From Roseovarius sp. UBA6217 (GTDB lineage Bacteria > Pseudomonadota > Alphaproteobacteria > Rhodobacterales > Rhodobacteraceae): DNA of 64,000 nucleotides. Positions 986 to 54,083 of the stretch are shown piece by piece. The position numbers and the translations under genes are program-made. The notes under the pieces were generated by a model. It had not been told where the DNA came from. It ran no database searches and worked only from the letters and a program-made list of their open reading frames with translations. Location of the stretch: NCBI GenBank assembly GCA_002421985.1, contig DISF01000043.1, forward strand, positions 4,462 through 68,461, read 5' to 3'. Every line of letters starts with the position of its first letter. Positions within the stretch are counted from its first letter, which is position 1.

Positions 986-3900
986 ATGGCCGAATTCCGG
1001 AAAATCCTCATCGCCAATCGCGGCGAGATCGCCATTCGCGTGATGCGCGCGGCCAATGAGCTGGGCAAGCGCACCGTCGCCGTATTTGCCGAAGAGGACA
1101 AGCTGTCGCTGCACCGCTTCAAGGCCGACGAGGCCTATCGCATCGGCGAGGGGCTGGGGCCGGTGGCGGCCTACCTGTCGATCGAGGAGATCATCCGCGT
1201 GGCGAGGCTTTCGGGCGCGGACGCGATCCATCCCGGTTATGGCTTGCTCAGCGAAAACCCCGATTTCGTCGATGCCTGCACGGCGGCGGGGATTACCTTC
1301 ATCGGCCCCAAGGCGGAAACCATGCGCGCGCTTGGCGACAAGGCCAGCGCGCGGCGCGTGGCCATCGAGGCGGGCGTGCCGGTCATCCCCGCCACCGAGG
1401 TGCTGGGCGACGACATGGACAAGGTCCGCGCCGAGGCCGAGGCGGTGGGCTATCCACTGATGCTCAAGGCAAGCTGGGGCGGCGGCGGGCGCGGGATGCG
1501 CCCTATCCTTGATCCGTCAGAGCTGACGGAAAAGGTGCTGGAGGGCCGCCGCGAGGCCGAGGCCGCATTCGGCAATGGCGAGGGTTATCTGGAAAAGATG
1601 ATCGAGCGCGCGCGCCATGTCGAGGTCCAGATCCTCGGCGACAGCCACGGCAACATGTATCACCTGTTTGAGCGCGATTGCTCGGTGCAGCGCCGCAATC
1701 AAAAGGTCGTCGAGCGCGCCCCCGCCCCCTATCTTTCGGAGGCGCAGCGCGAGGAAATCTGCGAGCTTGGTTACCGCATCTGCAAGCATGTGAATTACGA
1801 ATGCGCCGGCACCGTCGAGTTCCTGATGGATATGGACAGCGGCAAGTTCTACTTCATCGAGGTCAACCCCCGCGTGCAGGTCGAACACACCGTGACCGAG
1901 GAGGTCACCGGCATCGACATCGTGCAGGCGCAGATCAGGATCGCCGAGGGCAAGACCCTGGCAGAGGCCACCGGCAAGGCCAGCCAATCCGACATCACGC
2001 TGAACGGTCACGCGCTGCAAACGCGGATCACCACCGAGGATCCGCTGAATAATTTCATCCCCGATTACGGCCGCATCACCGCCTATCGCAGCGCCACCGG
2101 CATGGGCATTCGCCTTGACGGCGGCACCGCCTATTCGGGCGGCGTCATCACGCGCTATTATGACAGCCTGCTGACCAAGGTCACCGCCCACGCCCAGACG
2201 CCTGAGGCCGCGATTGCCCGGATGGACCGCGCCCTGCGCGAGTTCCGCATTCGCGGGGTGTCAACCAATATCGCCTTTGTCGAGAACCTGCTCAAGCACC
2301 CGACATTCCTCAACAACCAGTATACCACCAAGTTCATCGACACGACGCCCGAGTTGTTCAAGTTCTCCAGGCGGCGCGACCGGGGCACCAAGGTGCTGAC
2401 CTATATCGCCGACATCACCGTGAACGGCCACCCCGAGACGGTGGGCCGCGCGAAACCGGCGGATGTGAAGCCGCCGCGCCCGCCCCGGTCGCTGGCCGAT
2501 CCGGCCCCCGGCACCAAGACGCTGCTGGAGGCGCAAGGCGCCAGGGCCGTGGCCGACTGGATGCTGGCGCAAAACCGCCTGCTTGTGACCGACACCACCA
2601 TGCGCGACGGGCATCAATCGCTTCTGGCCACGCGGATGCGCTCGATCGACATGATCCGCGTGGCCCCCGCCTATGCCGCCAACCTGCCGGGCCTTTTCAG
2701 CGTGGAATGCTGGGGCGGGGCGACGTTCGATGTGGCCTATCGGTTCTTGCAGGAATGCCCGTGGCAGCGCCTGCGCGATCTGCGCGCCGCCATGCCCAAC
2801 CTGCTGACGCAGATGCTTTTGCGCGCCTCCAACGGCGTGGGCTATACCAACTACCCCGACAACGTGGTGCAGGAATTCGTGCGTCAGGCCGCCGAGACGG
2901 GCGTCGATGTGTTTCGCGTGTTCGACAGCCTCAACTGGGTCGAGAACATGCGCGTCGCGATGGATGCGGTGATCGACACTGGCAAGATCTGCGAGGGCAC
3001 GATCTGCTATACCGGCGATATCCTTGACCCCGACCGCGCCAAGTATGACCTGAAATATTACGTTGGCATGGCGCGTGACTTGCAGGCGGCGGGCGCGCAT
3101 GTCCTGGGCCTCAAGGACATGGCAGGGCTGTTGAAACCGGCCTCGGCCAGCGTTCTGGTCAAGGCCTTGAAAGAAGAATTGGATATCCCCGTCCATTTCC
3201 ACACCCATGACACCAGCGGCATTGCCGGGGCCACCATCCTTGCCGCCGCTGAGGCAGGCGTTGATGCGGTCGATGCCGCGATGGATGCCTTCTCGGGCGG
3301 CACCTCGCAGCCCTGCCTTGGCTCTATCGTTTCCGCCCTGCGCCACACGCCGCGCGACACGGGCCTGCCCATCGAGCGTATCCGCGAGATTTCCAACTAC
3401 TGGGAACATGTGCGCGCGCAATATGTGGCGTTTGAATCGGGCCTTCAGGCCCCCGCCTCCGAGGTCTATCTGCACGAGATGCCCGGCGGGCAGTTCACCA
3501 ACCTCAAGGCGCAGGCGCGCGCTCTTGGCCTGGAGGAAAAATGGCCCGAGGTGGCGCGCACCTATGCGGATGTGAACCAGATGTTCGGCGATATCGTCAA
3601 GGTCACGCCATCGTCCAAGGTGGTGGGCGACATGGCGCTGATGATGGTGAGCCAGGGCCTCAGCCGCGCCGATGTCGAAGACCCGGCGCGCGACGTGGCC
3701 TTTCCCGATAGCGTGATCGACATGATGCGCGGCAACCTTGGCCAGCCGCCGGGCGGCTTTCCCGAGGGGATCGTGAAAAAGGTGCTCAAGGATGAGCAGC
3801 CCAATACCGAGCGCCCCGGCCTGCACCTGGCCCCCGTCGATATCGAGGCCACGCAGCGCGATGTGGTGGCCCAGCTTGACGGCAAGGAGATCGACCGCGA

Positions 3901-4423
3901 GGATCTGAACGGATACCTGATGTATCCCAAGGTCTTTCTCGATTACATGGGCCGTCACCGCCAATATGGCCCGGTGCGCACCCTGCCCACGCGCACCTTC
4001 TTTTACGGGATGGAACCGGGCGAGGAAATCAGCGTCGAGATCGACCCCGGCAAGATCCTTGAAATCCGCCTGCAAACCCTGGGCGAGACCAGTGAGGACG
4101 GCGAGGTCAAGGTGTTCTTCGAGCTCAACGGCCAGCCCCGCGTGATCCGCGTCCCGAACCGTCTGGTGAAATCCACCGCCGCCAGCCGCCCCAAGGCCGA
4201 GCCGGGCAACCCTGGCCATATCGGCGCGCCCATGCCCGGCGTGGTGGCCAGCGTCGCGGTGCAGGCAGGCCAAAGCGTCAAGACCGGCGACATGCTGCTG
4301 ACCATCGAGGCGATGAAGATGGAAACAGGCATCCATGCCGAGCGCGATGCGGTGGTCCGGGCTGTGCATGTCACACCGGGCGGGCAGATCGACGCCAAGG
4401 ATCTGCTTGTAGAGCTGGAGTAG
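986..4423 (+). CDS. pyc: Pyruvate carboxylase
   Basis: Biotin carboxylase (ANRGEIA, GGGGRGMR), carboxyltransferase (RDGHQSL, HFHTHDT) and biotin-attachment EAMKM motifs; GGGAGAG RBS before ATG 986. Confidence 0.97.
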   Translation: MAEFRKILIANRGEIAIRVMRAANELGKRTVAVFAEEDKLSLHRFKADEAYRIGEGLGPVAAYLSIEEIIRVARLSGADAIHPGYGLLSENPDFVDACTAAGITFIGPKAETMRALGDKASARRVAIEAGVPVIPATEVLGDDMDKVRAEAEAVGYPLMLKASWGGGGRGMRPILDPSELTEKVLEGRREAEAAFGNGEGYLEKMIERARHVEVQILGDSHGNMYHLFERDCSVQRRNQKVVERAPAPYLSEAQREEICELGYRICKHVNYECAGTVEFLMDMDSGKFYFIEVNPRVQVEHTVTEEVTGIDIVQAQIRIAEGKTLAEATGKASQSDITLNGHALQTRITTEDPLNNFIPDYGRITAYRSATGMGIRLDGGTAYSGGVITRYYDSLLTKVTAHAQTPEAAIARMDRALREFRIRGVSTNIAFVENLLKHPTFLNNQYTTKFIDTTPELFKFSRRRDRGTKVLTYIADITVNGHPETVGRAKPADVKPPRPPRSLADPAPGTKTLLEAQGARAVADWMLAQNRLLVTDTTMRDGHQSLLATRMRSIDMIRVAPAYAANLPGLFSVECWGGATFDVAYRFLQECPWQRLRDLRAAMPNLLTQMLLRASNGVGYTNYPDNVVQEFVRQAAETGVDVFRVFDSLNWVENMRVAMDAVIDTGKICEGTICYTGDILDPDRAKYDLKYYVGMARDLQAAGAHVLGLKDMAGLLKPASASVLVKALKEELDIPVHFHTHDTSGIAGATILAAAEAGVDAVDAAMDAFSGGTSQPCLGSIVSALRHTPRDTGLPIERIREISNYWEHVRAQYVAFESGLQAPASEVYLHEMPGGQFTNLKAQARALGLEEKWPEVARTYADVNQMFGDIVKVTPSSKVVGDMALMMVSQGLSRADVEDPARDVAFPDSVIDMMRGNLGQPPGGFPEGIVKKVLKDEQPNTERPGLHLAPVDIEATQRDVVAQLDGKEIDREDLNGYLMYPKVFLDYMGRHRQYGPVRTLPTRTFFYGMEPGEEISVEIDPGKILEIRLQTLGETSEDGEVKVFFELNGQPRVIRVPNRLVKSTAASRPKAEPGNPGHIGAPMPGVVASVAVQAGQSVKTGDMLLTIEAMKMETGIHAERDAVVRAVHVTPGGQIDAKDLLVELE

Positions 4424-4432
4424 CGGCACCCC

Positions 4433-4499
4433 GTCATCCTCCGGCCTGACCGGTAATCTCCCGAAGGCCAGAGACCCCCGGATCGCGTCCGAGGGTGAC
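4433..4499. repeat. Degenerate REP-like palindromic element (GTCATCCTC...GAGGGTGAC)
   Basis: Terminal 9-mers are reverse complements with one G-T mismatch; resembles GTCATCCYC/GAGGATGAC palindromes recalled from alphaproteobacteria. Confidence 0.5.
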
Positions 4500-4507
4500 A
4501 GGGCACG

Positions 4508-4690
4508 CGGGGCGCGGCGGGCGGCAGTCCGGTTGCGATCTTCAAAAGCCCCTGCCGACAGATGCCGTTGGCCTTGGGCCATCAGGATCCGAGCCTCTCC
4601 ATCGACGAGCCGGGGGCTTGCGGGCTTTTGCTGCCGGGCGATACCGGCGTGATCGTCCACAGCGTCGATTTCACCCCGCCCCCGACCGGC
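4508..4690 (+). pseudogene. 3' remnant of a CpdA/Icc-like metallophosphoesterase
   Basis: Frame reads PVAIFKSPCRQMPLALGHQDPSLSIDEPGACGLLLPGDTGVIVHSVDF, like the C-terminus of roseobacter cyclic-nucleotide phosphodiesterases; metal-binding N-terminal region absent. Confidence 0.5.
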
Positions 4691-4788
4691 GCCGCGATTT
4701 GTCCCCGAGCGTGGCCCCGTAAAACACCGGGTTTGCGACCGGCCCCGCCCGCATCCGAAATTTCTCTCGCCTCGGGGCGATTTTCCTC

Positions 4789-4817
4789 TTGCAGCCCGCG
4801 CCGTGGCTTTGTATCTC
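4789..4817 (+). promoter_or_regulatory. Sigma70-type promoter for tRNA-Gly
   Basis: TTGCAG-17 nt-TATCTC, 17 nt upstream of the tRNA 5' end. Confidence 0.55.
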
Positions 4818-4834
4818 CCGCCTCACCCAAGGAC

Positions 4835-4909
4835 GCGGGCGTAGCTCAGGGGTAGAGCATTACCTTGCCAAGGTAAGGGTCGAGAGTTCGAATCTCTTCG
4901 CCCGCTCCA
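4835..4909 (+). tRNA. tRNA-Gly (anticodon GCC)
   Basis: Cloverleaf GCGGGCG/CGCCCGC acceptor, TTACC-TTGCCAA-GGTAA anticodon arm, TTCGAAT T-loop, encoded CCA. Confidence 0.97.
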
Positions 4910-4957
4910 ATTTACACTGGCCTTGTCGAATGATGGCGCAGTGAAACCGGGTGAACG

Positions 4958-4987
4958 AGAGGGCCGCAATCGCGGCCCTTTTCGTTT
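4958..4987 (+). terminator. Rho-independent terminator after tRNA-Gly
   Basis: AGGGCCGC-aatc-GCGGCCCT followed by TTTCGTTT. Confidence 0.75.
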
Positions 4988-5026
4988 GCGTGGCCCCTTG
5001 CGGGGCCATCCGGCAGACCTGACGGA

Positions 5027-6232
5027 TCAGATGCGCTTGGCCGCAGGCAGGCGCAGCAAGAGCGGGCCGTAGATCACCGCAAACCCGCCAAAACCCGCGA
5101 TCCACCCCAGCCCCGCCACCATATGCAGCGGCCCGGACAGCGCAGGCCAGACCCCGGCCGCGACGCGTGCCAGCACCGCCACCACCAGCGCCAGATAGAT
5201 CGCGACCGTGCCCGGCCCCGCCGTCAGCACCTGCCCGGTATGGCCCAGCGTCGCCCGCGTCATCACCGCCAGCGTCATCAGCCCGATCGCGCCCGCCATC
5301 CACAGATGCTGCGCCCCCGCCATGCCAAACGTCCCCGGCACAAGGATTTCCACCGCCAGCGCCAGCGCCCCCAGCGGAACAAAGCCATAGCCCGCGTGCA
5401 GCACCGTGACCAGCGGCTCGGCTCCTGTCCGGTGCCCCGCCCAGCGCGCCAGCCGAATCACGTGCAGCACGCCCGCCAGCGCCAGCGCCACGCCGGTCAG
5501 CACCGAAGACGGGACCGCAACCCAGAGCGCCAGCGCCAGAAGCAATGCCAGCAGCGCCACCTTGTCGAACCCCTGCATCGGCGGCGCGGGCAAGACCTTG
5601 CCGCGCCGTTTCACAAGCCAGTTGCGGGTGAAGGACGGCACCACCCGCCCGCCGATCACCGCGATCATCATGACGCCTGCGCCAAGGCCCAGCCGCAGCC
5701 CGACCCCTTGCGCGGCGTAATCGCCCCGTGCTGCCTCCCAGTGGAACAGCGCGTTGCCGAGGATGAGCGCGCCCAGCATCGCCAGCACGATCAGGTTGCG
5801 CCAGTTCCGGCCCGCGATGATCTCGCGCGCGAGGGCGGCGGCAAAGACCACCGGAAAGGCCAGATCGACCACGGCGACCACACCCGCAGGCAACCCGCCC
5901 GAGACCGCGACCACCACGCGCCCGGCCAGCCACAGACAGGCCAGCCCGCCCAGCCGCCAGCCGACAATGGGCAGCCGCCCCGTCCAGTTCGGCACCGCCG
6001 TCAGCAGGAACCCCGCCACCACCGCGCCCAGATAGCCAAACAGGAATTCATGCGCGTGCCAGCTTGCCGGATCAAACGCCGATGCCAGGCCCGCCCCCCC
6101 CGACAGCATCGCCAGCCACAGCCCCATCGCCAGCGCCGCCCAGACCGCCGCGCCGAAAAAGAACGGACGGAACCCGAAGCTCAGGATCGCCGGGCCGGTC
6201 CAGGCGCGCATCTTTTCCGAGGTTGTGCTCAT
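5027..6232 (-). CDS. nnrS: NnrS family membrane protein (nitrosative stress)
   Basis: GFRPFF, WHAHE.LFG, GFLLTAVPNWTG and MTRATLGHTG motifs; about 12 hydrophobic segments. Confidence 0.92.
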   Translation of the reverse strand: MSTTSEKMRAWTGPAILSFGFRPFFFGAAVWAALAMGLWLAMLSGGAGLASAFDPASWHAHEFLFGYLGAVVAGFLLTAVPNWTGRLPIVGWRLGGLACLWLAGRVVVAVSGGLPAGVVAVVDLAFPVVFAAALAREIIAGRNWRNLIVLAMLGALILGNALFHWEAARGDYAAQGVGLRLGLGAGVMMIAVIGGRVVPSFTRNWLVKRRGKVLPAPPMQGFDKVALLALLLALALWVAVPSSVLTGVALALAGVLHVIRLARWAGHRTGAEPLVTVLHAGYGFVPLGALALAVEILVPGTFGMAGAQHLWMAGAIGLMTLAVMTRATLGHTGQVLTAGPGTVAIYLALVVAVLARVAAGVWPALSGPLHMVAGLGWIAGFGGFAVIYGPLLLRLPAAKRI

Positions 6233-6253
6233 GATCGGTGTTCCTTTGCCCTC

Positions 6254-7168
6254 TCAGGCCGTCGCCGCCCGCGCGATCCGGCGATAGCCGGCCGTGCCAT
6301 GATAGAATCCGTTGCTGAACTCCGTGCCCTCGCAGAGCGCGGCAAGGCGCGCATCGCCCTCGGTCACCGATGACAGCCGCCCCTCCAGCAGGTCGCGGAA
6401 AACCTCCGCCACCGCCACCATGTCCACCACCTGCGGCATGAGCCGCAGATGGGTCACCCCGTCGGCCACAAGGCGGGGGGTTTCGGGCAGCAGATCGACA
6501 TAGCTCTCGGATTGGGTCTGGATGCCGTTCACCCGCAGGATCGGCGCATCGTCGCGGGTGCGCAGCGGCATCCCGTCGGGATCACTCTCGCAGACGAACT
6601 GGCAGTTATCCTTGGTCCGCCCATGGGCGCGGGCGTGGTAACAGCGCGCCGAGACGGCGAGCGACGCGCGCCCGAACACCTGCACCTCGACCCCCAGCCC
6701 CAGGTCGCGCGCCGCAGCGGCGGCAATGGCAATCGCCTCGCCCGGCAATTCGGCGGGCAGGCAGATATGGGTGGCCCCCTGCCCCGCCATCCAGGCAATC
6801 GTCGCCTCGTTATAGGCATTCATGAACGGGCCGATACGGTGCGGGCGGGACCCGCGCGCATAAAGCCCCGCCGCGTTGTTGATCTCGATCTCGGGCGCGT
6901 CCATCGCCGCCAGATCGGCGGTCGCCTTGCGCTCGCGCCTGAGCATCACCTCCGCGAGCGTCGAGACGATCACCCGCTTGCCCGCGCGTTCCAGCCGCGC
7001 GATGGTCTGCGGCAGGTCGGGTTCGTGAAAGGGCGCGCGCTTGGAGCAGATCACCTCGCCAAGATAGACCTCGTCCACCGGGGCCTCGTCGGCGATGCGG
7101 GCATAGAAATCGCGGCGCGTCTCGGCAGACCAGTGACAGGCGATCGGCCCCAGCGTCAGTTTCGTCAT
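6254..7168 (-). CDS. ubiV: U32 family protein UbiV, O2-independent ubiquinone biosynthesis
   Basis: LTLGP..W, YLGEVICSKR, SARCYHAR and DNCQFVC Fe-S cysteines; follows ubiU. Confidence 0.88.
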   Translation of the reverse strand: MTKLTLGPIACHWSAETRRDFYARIADEAPVDEVYLGEVICSKRAPFHEPDLPQTIARLERAGKRVIVSTLAEVMLRRERKATADLAAMDAPEIEINNAAGLYARGSRPHRIGPFMNAYNEATIAWMAGQGATHICLPAELPGEAIAIAAAAARDLGLGVEVQVFGRASLAVSARCYHARAHGRTKDNCQFVCESDPDGMPLRTRDDAPILRVNGIQTQSESYVDLLPETPRLVADGVTHLRLMPQVVDMVAVAEVFRDLLEGRLSSVTEGDARLAALCEGTEFSNGFYHGTAGYRRIARAATA

Positions 7169-7173
7169 TGTAA

Positions 7174-8172
7174 TCACCGCCATTTCTTGGTCTCGAACGC
7201 GCCCTGCGTCTGTTTCTGCCCCTCGGTCAGCGCGACCAGATCGGCGATATTGGCCTCGCGCCCCGCGCGGATATCATCGACCGCCTGCCGGAACGCCCGG
7301 ACCACGCCCCGCACATAGGACTTCGACCGCTGCCGCCCCTCGATCTTGAAGGCATGAACGCCCGCCTCGATCAACTCGGGCAGCAGGCGCGACAGGTTGA
7401 GGCTCACCGGTTCCTCGAAGGCGTAATAGCCCTCGGGCCGGTGCGGCGCGGTGTAGCGGCCCTTGCAGATCGTGGGATAGCCCGCCTTCTCCTCCGGGCC
7501 GAAACAGTCGATGGTAAATCCCGCCAGCCGCGACGACATCGAGCCATCGGCGTGGCGGGCATAGTCCACCTGCTCGGCGGGCGAACAGACACCATCCATA
7601 TTGGTGGACTGGCCGGTGAGGTAATTCGTCAGGCTGCACCGCCCCTCGACCATCAGGCCGTGATTGCCAAAGATGAAGGTCTCGATCTCGCAGGGAATCT
7701 CGCCCCGGATCTGGCGGATTTCGGGGATCGTCAGGATGCGCGGCAGCACCACGCGCTTCACCCCGAAGCTCTCGCAATAATAGCGGATCGCCTCGGGCGA
7801 GGAGGCGGCGGCCTGCACCGACAGGTGCAGGCGCATCTGCGGATGGGTGCGCGCGATGTAATCGGCCACCCCCATATCGGCCACGATAAAGGCATCGACC
7901 CCCAGCCGCGCGCCGGTATCGGCGGCGTGGCGCCACAGATCCACCTTGCCCGCGGGCGGATAGGTGTTGAGCGCCAAGAGCACCTTGGTGGCGCGCGCAT
8001 GGGCATAGGCCACCGCCTCGGCCAGCTCATCGGGGGTGAAATTCAGCCCCGGAAAATTGCGCGCATTGGTGGCATCCTGAAAGCCGCAATAAACGGCATC
8101 GGCCCCGGCATCGACGGCGGTGCGCAGGGCGGCGGGCGTGCCCGCAGGGCAGATCAGTTCGGCAAGGCTCAT
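7174..8172 (-). CDS. ubiU: U32 family protein UbiU, O2-independent ubiquinone biosynthesis
   Basis: ELICPAG, TNARNFPGLNF, EGRCSL, GVCSP, YPTICKGR, FKIEGRQRS motifs. Confidence 0.9.
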   Translation of the reverse strand: MSLAELICPAGTPAALRTAVDAGADAVYCGFQDATNARNFPGLNFTPDELAEAVAYAHARATKVLLALNTYPPAGKVDLWRHAADTGARLGVDAFIVADMGVADYIARTHPQMRLHLSVQAAASSPEAIRYYCESFGVKRVVLPRILTIPEIRQIRGEIPCEIETFIFGNHGLMVEGRCSLTNYLTGQSTNMDGVCSPAEQVDYARHADGSMSSRLAGFTIDCFGPEEKAGYPTICKGRYTAPHRPEGYYAFEEPVSLNLSRLLPELIEAGVHAFKIEGRQRSKSYVRGVVRAFRQAVDDIRAGREANIADLVALTEGQKQTQGAFETKKWR

Positions 8173-8696
8173 GCGGTTTTCCGTTCGTAATCATGGCTAT
8201 AGGCGCGCCGGAGCCGCGCAAGCACCGCCCGGCCCGGCACCCCGAACATGGCGGCGGCTTCCTCGGCGATGGAGCCGTCAACATCATCAAGCGCGTTGCG
8301 CAGGCGCACCACCGCCTCGGTGTCGCCGCTTACCTCCAGATCGCGCGAAAAGAACGCGGCATCGCCGTCTTCCTCGGAATCCATCAACTCCAGCAGCAGC
8401 AGGAACCGCCCCCGGATCACCGCCCCCGCGCGCGGCGCAGCATCGCGCGGCACGGCGCGAAAGATGAGCGCGGCAGGGTCGGGCCGCAGGTGCAGCGCAA
8501 AAGGCAGATCGACCGGGTCGATCAGGAAATCGGTGCGCTGATGCGGCCCCAGCCGCGCGAAAAGCTGCGGATGGCGCGCCGCGATCCGGCGCACCGTGCG
8601 CGACAGAAGCGGCTGAACCACGCCGCAGGCCAGCCGCGCAATCACGCCGCTGCCGGGCACTCGGATCGGGGGGGCGGTATCGGTGCCGGGGGTCAT
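8169..8696 (-). CDS. ubiT: SCP2 lipid-carrier domain protein UbiT
   Basis: DGDAAFFSRDLEVSGDTEAVVRLRNALD matches UbiT/YhbT core; overlaps ubiU start by 4 nt. Confidence 0.85.
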   Translation of the reverse strand: MTPGTDTAPPIRVPGSGVIARLACGVVQPLLSRTVRRIAARHPQLFARLGPHQRTDFLIDPVDLPFALHLRPDPAALIFRAVPRDAAPRAGAVIRGRFLLLLELMDSEEDGDAAFFSRDLEVSGDTEAVVRLRNALDDVDGSIAEEAAAMFGVPGRAVLARLRRAYSHDYERKTA

Positions 8697-9379
8697 GGCG
8701 CTTGGGTCCTTTCTGCGGGCACGCCATCCTCGGTCACGATCAGATCAAGCGGGATGTCATGCGGTTGCGGGTAGATCGTGGGGAGCTGCGCGGCGGTCAG
8801 CGCAATGCCAATGGCCAGCGGGCGCGGGGCGCACGCGGCCAGCGTGCGATCGAAATACCCCCCGCCCCAGCCCAGCCGATAGCAATCGGCACTCCACCCA
8901 AGGCAGGGGGCCAGCGTGATATCGGGGGCCAAGGCGTCGGCCTCGGGCGGCGGCACCGGGATATTCCAGTCGCCGCGCTGCATCTTTGTCTCTGGCGTCC
9001 AGCGGCGAAACACCAGCGGTGCGGCGCGCCTCTCGACCACCGGAAGGGCGATGGTCACACCGGCGCGGTGCAGCGCCTTGAGCATGGCGCGCAGGTCCGG
9101 CTCGCCCTTGATCGGCCAATAACCCGCCAGCACCACACCCGGCCCGATGCCCCGCGCGTCGAGCACGCGCGACAGGTGTCGCCCGATCCGCGCGGATACC
9201 TCCGCCCGCCCGGCCTGCCCCAGCGCATCGCGCAATCCGGCCAGCCGCAACCGCTCTGCCCGGCGCCAGCGCGCCACGTCGCGCGCCTGAACCGGGTCGG
9301 TGCCCAAGGGGTCGAAATAGGCCGGGTCCACCTCGGCGGCCATGCAGGGCGGCGAGGCATATGTGCGGTGCCCGCTCAT
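8693..9379 (-). CDS. 5-formyltetrahydrofolate cyclo-ligase family protein with N-terminal extension
   Basis: YWPIKGEPD, LGWGGGYFDRTLA, PQPHDIPLD motifs; 4-nt overlap with ubiT. Confidence 0.88.
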   Translation of the reverse strand: MSGHRTYASPPCMAAEVDPAYFDPLGTDPVQARDVARWRRAERLRLAGLRDALGQAGRAEVSARIGRHLSRVLDARGIGPGVVLAGYWPIKGEPDLRAMLKALHRAGVTIALPVVERRAAPLVFRRWTPETKMQRGDWNIPVPPPEADALAPDITLAPCLGWSADCYRLGWGGGYFDRTLAACAPRPLAIGIALTAAQLPTIYPQPHDIPLDLIVTEDGVPAERTQAP

Positions 9380-9496
9380 GGCCAGAGCCCGGCGGCGGCA
9401 CGCCCCGCCCCGTGGCCCGCTGCGTGCCTGCACGGCGCTGCGGTGCTGCCCTCGACGGTCATGCCCGGCCCTTTCCCCTTGCGACTCATCCCACCG

Positions 9497-9512
9497 GAAC
9501 GAAAAATCGTTC
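9497..9512. promoter_or_regulatory. Perfect inverted repeat GAACGA-AAAA-TCGTTC in the divergent promoter region (putative operator)
   Basis: 6-bp arms exact reverse complements. Confidence 0.4.
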
Positions 9513-9534
9513 GGTTTGCACGCTATTCCGTTTA

Positions 9535-9557
9535 TATGCGCATTGCAAATACCAGAT
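9535..9557. promoter_or_regulatory. Putative NsrR-type operator
   Basis: Core GCATTgcAAATAC matches the core of the enterobacterial NsrR site AAGATGCATTTnAAATACATCTT; flanks do not match. Confidence 0.35.
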
Positions 9558-9570
9558 CAGGATCGCGACC

Positions 9571-9984
9571 ATGCGCCTCACCTCCTTCACCGATTACGGG
9601 CTGCGCGTGCTGATGCGCCTGGCGGGCGCGCCCGACCGCGCCTTTACCACCGCCGCGCTTGCCGCCGAATTCCGCGTGTCGCGCAACCACCTGGCCAAGG
9701 TGGTCTCGGCCCTCGCCGCGGCGGGCATTCTGGATACACGGCGCGGCGGCGGCGGCGGTGCGATGCTGGCGGTGCAGCCCGAGGATATCCGGCTGGGTGA
9801 TGTGGTGGCGATGCTCGAGGCCGATCAGGCGCTGGTGGAATGTTTCGCGAGTGGCGGCAATGCCTGCACCATGATGCCACAGTGCCGCCTCAAGACCCGG
9901 CTGGCGCAAGCCCAAGCCGCCTTTATCCGCGATCTCAACCAAAGCACGCTCGCCGATTGCGTCTATCGCCCCGATCCCGCCTGA
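9571..9984 (+). CDS. nsrR: Rrf2 family regulator, NsrR-like (NO-sensing Fe-S)
   Basis: MRLTSFTDYGLRVL N-terminus, SRNHLAKVV HTH, C-x7-C-x5-C triad. Confidence 0.75.
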   Translation: MRLTSFTDYGLRVLMRLAGAPDRAFTTAALAAEFRVSRNHLAKVVSALAAAGILDTRRGGGGGAMLAVQPEDIRLGDVVAMLEADQALVECFASGGNACTMMPQCRLKTRLAQAQAAFIRDLNQSTLADCVYRPDPA

Positions 9985-10059
9985 GCGGGCACCCACGTTC
10001 CCCCCTTTCGCGCAGGCAGCGCCCGCAGTATAGAACCCGCAGCCAACAGCGGAGGCCCC

Positions 10060-10647
10060 ATGCGCAACGCCACCATCACCCGCAAGACCGCCGAGACCGA
10101 TATCAGCGTCGACATCGCGCTGGACGGCACCGGCAGCTATGACAACCGCACCGGCGTGGGGTTTTTCGATCACATGCTCGATCAACTGGCGCGCCATTCG
10201 CTGATCGACATGGTGGTGCGCTGCGCGGGCGATCTGCATATCGACGATCACCACACGGTCGAGGATGTGGGCATCGCGCTCGGTCAGGCGCTGGCGCAGG
10301 CGCTTGGCGACAAGCGCGGCATCCGCCGCTACGGGGCCTGCCTCTTGCCGATGGATGATGCTCTGGTGCGCGCCGCGCTCGATCTGTCGGGGCGGCCTTA
10401 TCTGGTGTGGAACCTGGCCCTGCCCACCGACAAGATCGGCACGTTCGATTGCGAGCTGGTGCGCGAGTTCTTTCAGGCTTTCAGCACCCATGGCGGCATC
10501 ACGCTCCATGTCGAGGCGCTGGCGGGGATCAACAGCCACCATATCGCCGAGGCCGCGTTCAAGGCCGTGGCGCGCGCCCTGCGCGAGGCGGTGGAGCACG
10601 ATCCGCGCAAATCCGATGCGATCCCCTCCACCAAGGGAAGCCTGTAA
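10060..10647 (+). CDS. hisB: Imidazoleglycerol-phosphate dehydratase
   Basis: DDHHTVED and NSHHIAEA signatures. Confidence 0.97.
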
Positions 10648-10650
10648 CCC

Positions 10651-11289
10651 ATGACCACCGTCATCGTCGATTACGAGAGCGGCAACCTGCACTCGGCCGA
10701 GAAGGCGTTTCAGCGCATGGCCACCGAGACCGGCGCAGGCGCGGTGATCGTGAGCGCCGATCCCGACACGATCGCCCGTGCGAGCCGCATCGTGCTTCCG
10801 GGCGACGGGGCCTTTCCCGCCTGCCGTGCCGCGCTTTTTGACCATCGCGGCGTCTATGAGGCCATCGAGGAGGCGGTGCGCCACCATGCCCGCCCGTTCC
10901 TTGGAATCTGCATCGGGATGCAGATGCTGGCCACGCGCGGGATGGAATACGAGGATACACCCGGTTTCGACTGGATCGCCGGCACGGTGGCGCATATCAC
11001 CCCCGCTGATCCGGCGCTCAAGGTGCCGCATATGGGATGGAACGATCTGGTGATCGACCATGCCCACCCGGTGCTCGACGGGATTTCAACCGGCGATCAC
11101 GCCTATTTCGTGCATTCCTATCATTTCGAGGTGGCCGACCCCGCGCATCGCCTTGCGCATGTCGATTATGGCGGCGACATCACTGCGATTGTCGGGCGCG
11201 ACACGGTGCTGGGCACCCAGTTCCACCCCGAGAAAAGCCAGGCCACCGGCCTGCGCCTCATCGCCAATTTCCTGGCGTGGCGGCCCTGA
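10651..11289 (+). CDS. hisH: Imidazole glycerol phosphate synthase, glutaminase subunit
   Basis: GICIGMQ, VPHMGWN, QFHPEKS. Confidence 0.97.
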   Translation: MTTVIVDYESGNLHSAEKAFQRMATETGAGAVIVSADPDTIARASRIVLPGDGAFPACRAALFDHRGVYEAIEEAVRHHARPFLGICIGMQMLATRGMEYEDTPGFDWIAGTVAHITPADPALKVPHMGWNDLVIDHAHPVLDGISTGDHAYFVHSYHFEVADPAHRLAHVDYGGDITAIVGRDTVLGTQFHPEKSQATGLRLIANFLAWRP

Positions 11290-53113: not shown

Positions 53114-53476
<363 letters not shown>

Positions 53477-53549
53477 CTAGTCACCCCCCCTGCCCGAGGC
53501 CAGCCCCATTTGCGCCGCGCGGCGAAAAGTCTTGTCGCCGCGCGCATAT

Positions 53550-53564
53550 GTTCTATCTTTGTTC
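53550..53564 (+). promoter_or_regulatory. Alphaproteobacterial LexA (SOS) box
   Basis: Exact GTTC-N7-GTTC (gttc tatcttt gttc) ending 2 nt before ATG 53567. Confidence 0.8.
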
Positions 53565-53566
53565 TC

Positions 53567-53941
53567 ATGACGCACCCCCTGCCCCGCCCGCCCTCGGCCC
53601 TCATCGCCGCCCGCCTGCCCGAGGTGCCGCCGGGGCGGCGCGTGGCGGTGGCGGGGCTGGTGATCGTGCGGCAGCGCCCCGGCACGGCGCGCGGGGTGGT
53701 GTTTCTCACGCTCGAGGACGAAACCGGGGTCGTCAATGTCATCGTCTGGCGCACCCTGTTCGAGCGGTATCGCCGCGCGGTGATCGCCGGGCGGCTCTTG
53801 CGCGTCACGGGCCGGGTAGAGCGGCAGGCCGGGGTGATCCATGTCGTGGCCGAGGAAATCGAGGATATCTCGCCCCTGCTCGACCGGCTGGCCGATGCCG
53901 ATGCCGAGGCCCCGCTTCCCCCGCGCGCGCAAACCGGCTAA
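53567..53941 (+). CDS. Stand-alone OB-fold protein homologous to the DnaE2 C-terminal domain
   Basis: VAGLVIVRQRPGTARGVVFLTLEDETGVVNVIVW...VIHVVAEEIEDIS resembles the C-family polymerase OB fold; 124 aa. Confidence 0.8.
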   Translation: MTHPLPRPPSALIAARLPEVPPGRRVAVAGLVIVRQRPGTARGVVFLTLEDETGVVNVIVWRTLFERYRRAVIAGRLLRVTGRVERQAGVIHVVAEEIEDISPLLDRLADADAEAPLPPRAQTG

Positions 53942-54083
53942 AGCAATTCCAGAAAAAGTTGATAGACTTTTTCGGTTCGGAATTGCGCCCCCTCAGGCAT
54001 TCAGAGCGTTTTGGTGTTTCAACGAAAAACCAAAATGCTCTAGGGTCGCTTCGACAGTCACCACCCGGATCGCCCCACCGCCC

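Follow-up and report, generated by a model that had tools for sequence, protein, structure and literature searches.

A stand-alone DnaE2-type OB-fold gene behind a predicted LexA operator in Roseovarius and related Rhodobacterales

We analysed 64,000 nucleotides of Roseovarius sp. UBA6217 (Rhodobacterales; assembly GCA_002421985.1, contig DISF01000043.1, positions 4,462 to 68,461 of the forward strand), referred to here as the window, which contain a short gene encoding a 124-aa protein with an OB fold of the type found at the C-terminus of the error-prone DNA polymerase DnaE2 (Table 1). The gene is preceded by the direct repeat GTTCTATCTTTGTTC, which has the form GTTC-N7-GTTC of the LexA motif of Alphaproteobacteria (PMC3323433), overlaps the -10 hexamer, ends 2 nt upstream of the ATG and is the sole such repeat on either strand of the window. 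A first-pass annotation made from the sequence alone had described promoter-like hexamers, TTGTCG and TATCTT, separated by 16 nt, with the -10 inside an exact repeat and the ATG 7 nt after the -10 with no ribosome binding site. All of these elements could be confirmed in the sequence, the 7 nt (tgttctc) between TATCTT and the start codon leaving no space for a Shine-Dalgarno sequence. Its identification of the repeat as the alphaproteobacterial LexA site agrees with the published motif and with the presence of such repeats at imuB and dnaE2 in relatives.

Profile searches with the protein bore out the proposed resemblance to DnaE2. Pfam detected only PF01336 (OB fold, E 3e-13), matching the earlier description of a product with an OB fold alone, while the NCBIfam error-prone polymerase model NF004225 was matched at model positions 944-1040 of 1047 (E 7e-34) with a score of 117 bits against a family cut-off of 939, as expected for a protein of fragment size. 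Neither a PHP domain nor a polymerase core with the catalytic PDxDxD motif was found in the 124-aa protein using Pfam and NCBIfam. The protein aligned to the C-terminal OB of DnaE2 proteins (P0271, P0386 and P0443) and is 55-69 % identical to DnaE2 OB domains from Rhodobacterales, and a profile search of PDB sequences matched residues 985-1079 of E. coli Pol III alpha, the OB domain of that subunit. AlphaFold2 gave a confident model (predicted local distance difference test, pLDDT, 85.9; predicted template modelling score, pTM, 0.78) of a five-stranded OB barrel with flanking helices, for which Foldseek returned the nucleic-acid-binding OB folds of AspRS, LysRS, RPA, Stn1 and ExoVII. Alignment A1 of the family contains 48 invariant columns. 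Among the invariant positions is a basic loop, RQRPGTA(R/K)G, whose aligned counterpart in E. coli alpha is loop 1003-1013; the latter bears R1004, K1009 and R1010 and is in contact with the beta clamp (PMC4703070). At its C-terminus the window protein reads ...LPPRAQTG, without the DnaE2 tail motif HPREQAKRLFPSRDFH. Identity as a single-stranded DNA-binding protein of the SSB family was considered and rejected, as PF00436 scored 14.1 bits against a cut-off of 26 and the C-terminus (...ADADAEAPLPPRAQTG) has no acidic tip.

To place the gene in its lineage we scanned one genome per species, which returned 80 loci (L numbers). Two of these are full-length dnaE2 genes, in Rhodovulum (L069) and Thermohalobaculum (L077), and the other 78 are short stand-alone open reading frames (ORFs), all intact, from more than 30 genera including Roseovarius, Mameliella, Shimia, Ruegeria, Roseivivax, Salipiger, Leisingera, Sulfitobacter, Primorskyibacter and Pseudooceanicola. 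An exact GTTC-N7-GTTC lies within 200 nt upstream of 76 of the 78, compared with a chance of approximately 0.4 % for the motif in a random 230-nt stretch on a given strand; the two exceptions are the closest relative (L001, 90 % identity), which has GTTC-N7-GTTT, and L046, which is cut by a contig end. Anchoring the stand-alone loci on the box gave the consensus cTTGCg-N16-ATGTTCTATaTTTGTTCtCATG, with TTGCGN as the commonest -35 form, 16 nt before the -10, and TATATT (19 loci), TATCTT (14) and TATTTT (10) as the commonest -10 forms. An in-frame start occurs 1-6 nt past the box in 73 loci and at exactly 2 nt in 57; for the 71 loci in which it falls within 1-5 nt there are 69 ATG and 2 GTG codons, and in several loci an upstream in-frame stop makes the ATG near the box the sole possible start. 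The geometry of a leaderless transcript, with the -10 approximately 7 nt before the start, no Shine-Dalgarno sequence and near-exclusive use of ATG, is found in the window and in 71 of the 78 loci, and the mRNA is probably leaderless, its predicted first nucleotide being the A of the ATG or an immediate neighbour.

The lengths of the 120 nearest database proteins all fall within 112-169 aa, and RefSeq names these proteins solely 'OB-fold nucleic acid binding domain-containing protein'; beyond these, a search of a representative library returned mainly metagenomic fragments of the DnaE2 C-terminus, with a length distribution that is uninformative. In 72 of the 80 loci the gene is kept in a divergent arrangement with a ferredoxin gene, and the downstream gene is kept in 56. 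Median dN/dS over the core was 0.24 (Nei-Gojobori, 2384 pairs), and values between the window and its nearest relatives ranged from 0.17 to 0.30. These comparisons identify the ORF as a functional gene that has been inherited vertically in the marine Rhodobacterales (Roseobacter group). That it is instead the decaying 3′ end left over from a deleted imuA-imuB-dnaE2 operon, its open frame and old operator kept by chance, is scarcely credible. Homology restricted to the last ~100 residues of DnaE2 would be expected of such a remnant, as would the arrangement at L078, where an imuA-like ORF is followed directly by the box and OB gene, yet the frames are intact in 78 loci of more than 30 genera at a dN/dS of 0.24, the geometry of promoter, operator and ATG is conserved, the synteny is unrelated to imu loci and 48 alignment columns are invariant. 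The broken end of a dnaE2 pseudogene, which the first-pass annotation had named as the outcome fatal to its reading, is contradicted by protein length, by synteny and by the dN/dS ratio.

Annotation of the family is inconsistent, and members of 120-130 aa appear in different sources under the names 'Error-prone DNA polymerase', 'DNA polymerase III alpha subunit', 'DNA-directed RNA polymerase' and 'single-strand DNA-binding protein' (P0079, P0498, P0500, P0032, P0036), which constitutes over-annotation of a domain-sized protein. In Mameliella alba (L007) the usual OB stop is missing and the ORF extends to 222 aa, representing either a real extension or an assembly error.

The same 15-mer in GAAC orientation (e.g. 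GAACATATATAGAAC) immediately precedes the starts of imuB and dnaE2, canonical genes of the SOS cassette, in related genomes (L054, L077, L083-L086, L098-L100). In six of these genomes dnaE2 has a box of its own, separate from that of imuB and ending 0-3 nt before the start codon (Table 1), and dnaE2 there also looks to be separately SOS-controlled and leaderless. The OB gene shows the features expected at the sequence level of an alphaproteobacterial SOS gene, namely an exact box overlapping the -10 and its conservation upstream of orthologues. As the box lies within the 129-nt intergenic region shared with the divergent 2Fe-2S ferredoxin gene, it could in principle serve the latter, leaving the OB gene without damage regulation. 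We regard this as very improbable, as 113 nt separate the box from the ferredoxin start, whereas on the OB side it overlaps the -10 and stops 2 nt short of the ATG, and it stays with the OB gene in loci where the ferredoxin neighbour is absent (L054, L075 and L078), identifying the OB gene and not the ferredoxin gene as its target. We infer that the OB gene is under LexA control. Taken together, the profile matches, the conservation of box and start over approximately 78 loci, purifying selection and synteny support the initial proposal of a stand-alone DnaE2-type OB behind a LexA box with a probably leaderless mRNA, and a real gene of this kind, derived from DnaE2, is very likely.

The ferredoxin-OB intergenic region contains a second conserved motif, cccnTTTGCGAcc, located ~21 nt upstream of the -35 TTGCGAC and found at the same position in L002, L004, L005, L009, L025, L031, L032, L035, L040, L044, L064 and others. 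Together with the -35 it forms a direct repeat of TTGCGAC in 27 of the 78 loci, and it could be the ferredoxin promoter or the site of a second regulator.

The origin of the gene was traced through DnaE2 itself. Queries with the L077 DnaE2 core and a DnaE2 from Ruegeria yielded 235 full-size DnaE2 proteins, of which 21 have no OB domain. All 21 retain the catalytic PDIDVDF motif and are not fragments, and nearly all end no more than ~15 residues after a conserved LRAHPxAxLR. The start of the window protein, MTHPLP..RPPSALIAAR, aligns to AHPLALLREQLSGCRPPSHAATR of the full-length Thermohalobaculum DnaE2, and MTHPLP..RPPSAL to AHPLALLREQLSGCRPPS of full-length DnaE2, so that the stand-alone protein starts where the OB-less polymerases end. 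A neighbour-joining tree of DnaE2 cores places the OB-less forms in two or more clusters interspersed with OB-bearing ones, which suggests that the OB was lost repeatedly from DnaE2.

Both halves occur together in a number of relatives. The closed 4.05-Mb chromosome OY769916.1 (L054) carries, in order, a LexA box, imuB, a dnaE2 gene lacking the OB region (dnaE2ΔOB) that ends ...LRAHPVALLRHVLTPQPVSK, a lipoprotein gene on the opposite strand, a second LexA box and an OB ORF that retains part of the DnaE2 tail. In the metagenome-assembled genome (MAG) JBCBOR01, the largest contig (L083) carries dnaE2ΔOB and boxes that precede imuB and dnaE2, and contig 223 (L053) carries a ferredoxin-linked OB. 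ORFs encoding the OB and tail, missed by gene callers, lie 0.5-2.5 kb downstream of dnaE2ΔOB in L086, L099 and L100; a GTTC-N7-GTTC box is present in L099, and in L100 dnaE2ΔOB, a NUDIX gene and the OB ORF follow one another with overlapping stop and start codons. Overall, imu genes are found within 10 kb in 2 of the 78 stand-alone loci. When assemblies were paired for OB-less or full-length DnaE2 with a stand-alone OB, JBCBOR01 was the sole match, with no shared assembly for P0305, P0302, P0291, P0492 or P0066, and a pair of proteins from a CG17 MAG (PIV79977 and PIV75935) is no more than suggestive of co-occurrence. Of the three mechanisms put forward in the first-pass annotation, the trans-acting half of a split DnaE2 is the best supported, the direct support coming from relatives, where L054 and JBCBOR01 contain both parts and the OB-less cores end where the OB starts. 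In the window itself tblastn with DnaE2, ImuA and ImuB queries found none of the three across the 64 kb, as the first-pass annotation had noted for the surroundings of the gene.

Four of the OB-less loci (L083, L086, L099 and L100) encode a pentapeptide-repeat protein of 591-717 aa between imuB and the OB-less dnaE2, which may be an extra accessory gene of this mutasome variant.

Detached OBs fall into two kinds. In a neighbour-joining tree of OB domains the 78 stand-alone OBs form one group, L054 and L078 included, and the downstream ORFs of L086, L099 and L100 group with the cis OBs of the Thermohalobaculum/Limibaculum DnaE2 clade. The split ORFs of the latter three loci contain the full tail HPREQAKRLFPSRDFH, the deep stand-alone members L054, L065, L075, L078 and L080 retain its RHPREQAKxLF, and the large ferredoxin-linked clade to which the window belongs ends ...QTG and has lost the tail. 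Comparison of these sequences shows that the OB family originated when dnaE2 was split in the linker joining the (HhH)2 and OB domains. In the simplest history, an old fission adjoining the imu operon would have been followed by acquisition of an operator and leaderless promoter of its own, by a move to the side of the ferredoxin gene and by loss of the tail, with later independent splits within one OB-less sub-clade. Deletion of an imu operon in situ beside the ferredoxin gene was also considered; the full-length DnaE2 loci L069 and L077 are without ferredoxin synteny, and relocation after fission therefore fits better.

We propose that LexA would sit on the GTTC-N7-GTTC operator covering the -10 and so block RNA polymerase, and that upon DNA damage RecA-stimulated cleavage of LexA would free the promoter, with transcription then starting on or beside the AUG and the mRNA lacking a leader. 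The protein would serve a C-family polymerase in trans as its OB 'tail', through binding of single-stranded DNA (ssDNA) and/or contact with the clamp via its basic loop, and would act at damaged templates with DnaE2 cores that have no OB of their own. The isolated OB of E. coli Pol III alpha binds ssDNA, loop 1003-1013 and helix 1035-1043 of alpha contact the sliding clamp in the DNA-bound holoenzyme, and an R1004S/K1009S/R1010S mutant of alpha synthesises DNA poorly (PMC4703070). In AlphaFold models of the mutasome the contacts of ImuB are on the PHP and (HhH)2 domains of DnaE2 and not on the OB (PMC12926913), and an OB-less core could therefore still join ImuB. The models also bear on the earlier suggestion of a competitive modulator of ImuABC, a decoy OB that titrates a partner of full-length DnaE2. 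Regulation in common with the imu genes and occurrence in the same genera as full-length DnaE2 would suit a decoy, but a free OB is an unlikely competitor for an interface on which the OB does not lie, and the intact OB-less cores beside the gene favour complementation over inhibition; this suggestion has lost ground and we consider it improbable.

Several observations weigh against the proposed reading. At the level of the window alone, a shuffled sequence is expected to contain 1.07 GTTC-N7-GTTC, so the box count is at chance level and not significant, and a generic sigma-70 promoter scan calls no OB promoter (score 8/12); the case for promoter and box rests on conservation. The RNA runs X38-X41 behave like DNA, and the one possible RNA contig (X48; 196 nt), which spans the promoter of a relative, has a depth of 3 and is uninterpretable. 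Binding by LexA, induction, the start of transcription and binding of DNA are predictions throughout. Monophyly of the stand-alone OBs has a bootstrap of 35 % on 118 columns, the OB contig of JBCBOR01 is merely 570 nt long, and the window organism is itself metagenome-derived (hydrocarbon, oil-facility), the split pairing being seen in relatives alone. The window protein is without the tail HPREQAKRLFPSRDFH that the adjacent split halves keep, and may have diverged in function. Full-length DnaE2 is present in R. mucosus, R. pacificus, R. albus, R. aestuarii and R. litorisediminis within Roseovarius, as well as in species of Ruegeria, Shimia, Sulfitobacter and Ponticoccus, and the core search placed no Roseovarius protein in the OB-less DnaE2 clade. 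Simple complementation cannot, given the full-length DnaE2 of other Roseovarius, explain retention of the OB gene everywhere.

The full-length DnaE2 genes are often plasmid-borne. The conjugative 132-kb plasmid p-SCP2 of Ponticoccus alexandrii (L101) carries a full-length cassette of SOS-response-associated peptidase (SRAP), imuA, imuB and dnaE2 adjoining an IS5 transposase, which is consistent with horizontal spread of such cassettes among roseobacters. In isolates of Mameliella alba compared with L069 as reference, a dnaE2-like core and the OB locus are on different contigs, at an identity threshold of 80 % that cis OBs of other types do not reach. The window metagenomes contain dnaE2-like contigs at window-like depth (~10x in X3 and 6-9x in X1), which is weak evidence.

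The main rival is that the protein may have an autonomous role beyond complementing OB-less DnaE2, as an SOS factor which, for example, binds ssDNA gaps or the beta clamp and slows Pol III or promotes polymerase switching, its DnaE2 ancestry being merely historical. Such a role would accommodate the loss of the tail in the ferredoxin-linked clade, the scarcity of nearby imu genes, the presence of the gene in genera whose known DnaE2 is full length and often on plasmids, and the alignment of the invariant loop with the clamp-contacting loop of E. coli alpha. It sits less well with the physical linkage of deep-branching members to imuB-dnaE2ΔOB or imuA, the recurrence of OB-less DnaE2 in Rhodobacterales, and the missing SSB-type acidic tip and sub-threshold PF00436 score, and we hold it to be the less probable explanation, at perhaps one chance in a few. 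A wider role may nevertheless be indicated by persistence of the gene in genera with full-length known DnaE2. Whether the protein acts in trans with a DnaE2 core is, in our estimate, evenly balanced. For the reading as a whole, a LexA-repressed leaderless OB module that is a product of dnaE2 fission and probably acts in trans with the mutasome, we put the probability at roughly 0.6. More tentatively, and with the odds somewhat against it, the module could be a subunit of the Rhodobacterales mutasome that is encoded on its own and induced in the SOS response, making it effectively a fourth Imu component; it would dock non-covalently onto DnaE2 cores and/or the beta clamp, and its presence in trans would have allowed repeated loss of the OB from DnaE2. 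The module may, in addition, work with two or more C-family polymerases, and this would account for its persistence where DnaE2 is full length or absent.

The surroundings of the gene in the window are of housekeeping character, with an FG-GAP repeat protein, a GNAT acetyltransferase and an M16 peptidase as further neighbours and, downstream, a lipoprotein with a peptidoglycan-binding domain. Between the OB gene and the latter is an AT-rich segment (GC 45 % compared with 66 % for the window) that folds into two hairpins (-46.8 kcal/mol, z -4.8). The hairpins, which we assign to the OB gene only tentatively, may represent a terminator or a repeat element; a generic terminator scan called no T-tract terminator in the segment, and Rfam returned zero matches in the locus, hairpins included, at gathering or E-value thresholds. 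No second copy of the segment is present within the window or the compared loci. In two metagenomes a 37-nt piece of it reaches ~10x the depth of its flanks, as a short dispersed repeat would.

Table 1 Positions of the OB gene, its control elements and neighbours in the window, and of related features at the compared loci
Feature	Location	Strand	Basis or remark
-35-like hexamer TTGTCG	53532..53537	+	read from sequence; family consensus TTGCGA
GTTC-N7-GTTC direct repeat GTTCTATCTTTGTTC, predicted LexA operator	53550..53564	+	read from sequence
-10 hexamer TATCTT within operator spacer	53554..53559	+	read from sequence
Coding sequence of the 124-aa stand-alone OB-fold protein, stop included	53567..53941	+	ORF; TAA at 53939-53941
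OB-fold domain, aa 26-101, homologous to the C-terminal OB of DnaE2 and Pol III alpha	53642..53869	+	PF01336, NF004225
Invariant basic loop RQRPGTA(R/K)G, aa 35-43	53669..53695	+	invariant columns in alignment A1
Two strong hairpins (53943-53986 and 54003-54041), AT-rich 3′ segment	53943..54041	+	RNA folding
37-nt piece of the hairpin segment	53951-53987		metagenome depth
2Fe-2S ferredoxin gene	53114..53437	-	divergent from OB gene
Conserved motif cccnTTTGCGAcc	53505-53520		
Downstream lipoprotein gene	start probably 54084		
OB and tail ORFs	L086 13377-13943; L099 9394-9870; L100 5761-6210		
Boxes preceding dnaE2	L077 6911-6925; L083 9983-9997; L084 7985-7999; L086 7986-8000; L098 4983-4997; L099 4984-4998		GAAC orientation
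GTTC-N7-GTTC box	L099 9348		
Pentapeptide-repeat genes	L083 8009-9784; L086 5787-7940; L099 2661-4793; L100 371-2155		
L054 LexA boxes	3548; 9959		
L054 imuB	3586..5259		
L054 dnaE2ΔOB	5753..8821		
L054 OB ORF	ends at 10456		
L078 imuA-like ORF	9278..9961		
L007 extended OB ORF (Mameliella alba)	9995-10663		
L101 SRAP-imuA-imuB-dnaE2 cassette (plasmid p-SCP2)	946-6976		

The ImuA-ImuB-DnaE2 mutasome drives damage-induced mutagenesis in roughly one third of bacteria. To our knowledge the role of the DnaE2 OB is not known, and for the equivalent domain of Pol III alpha it is debated whether it serves as an ssDNA sensor or as a clamp contact. An OB encoded as a separate and separately regulated protein beside intact OB-less polymerases amounts to a natural genetic dissection, in which the OB can be deleted, titrated or swapped while the polymerase is left untouched. 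The gene is also predicted to add a new, conserved member to the SOS regulon of Alphaproteobacteria and to be a clear-cut case of a leaderless promoter embedded in its operator. Many DnaE2 annotations in Rhodobacterales need correction, both where 'error-prone DNA polymerase' is applied to 120-aa proteins and where OB ORFs are uncalled.

Among known systems the protein shares with DnaE2/ImuC (NF004225) the homology of the C-terminal OB and regulation by a LexA box as in the imuA-imuB-dnaE2 cassette, but is without the PHP domain, core, (HhH)2 and tail HPREQAKRLFPSRDFH and is encoded at an unrelated locus behind a leaderless promoter of its own. The OB of E. coli Pol III alpha (PDB 5FKU/5FKV/5FKW, residues ~960-1071) has the same fold, the same position in the C-family architecture and the aligned loop, although the similarity is distant (E 0.001, profile) and the OB protein has no tau-binding domain and is a separate polypeptide. 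Small OB-fold proteins of the SSB family (PF00436), whose gene ssb is a common member of the SOS regulon in Alphaproteobacteria, differ in that the protein described here is of PF01336-type ancestry and has no acidic tip. Cyanobacterial DnaE is likewise a C-family polymerase in two genes, there split within the core and rejoined by trans-splicing inteins, whereas the OB protein has no intein, begins with 5-25 variable residues followed by WPRPPS and would require non-covalent association. The text of a 2026 survey of bacterial polymerases (PMC12926913) contains no OB-less or split DnaE2 and no stand-alone DnaE2 OB, the OB appearing in a figure label only, and literature searches found no description of either; the gene looks like a part of the machinery of bacterial mutagenesis that has become detached and has not yet been described. 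In concept its nearest precedent is the split ImuB of DnaE2X systems (Nucleic Acids Res 2026, PMC12926913), in which a different protein is split, into iPolY and a stand-alone ImuB-C, and a component of the mutasome is likewise encoded as two proteins that are thought to reassemble.

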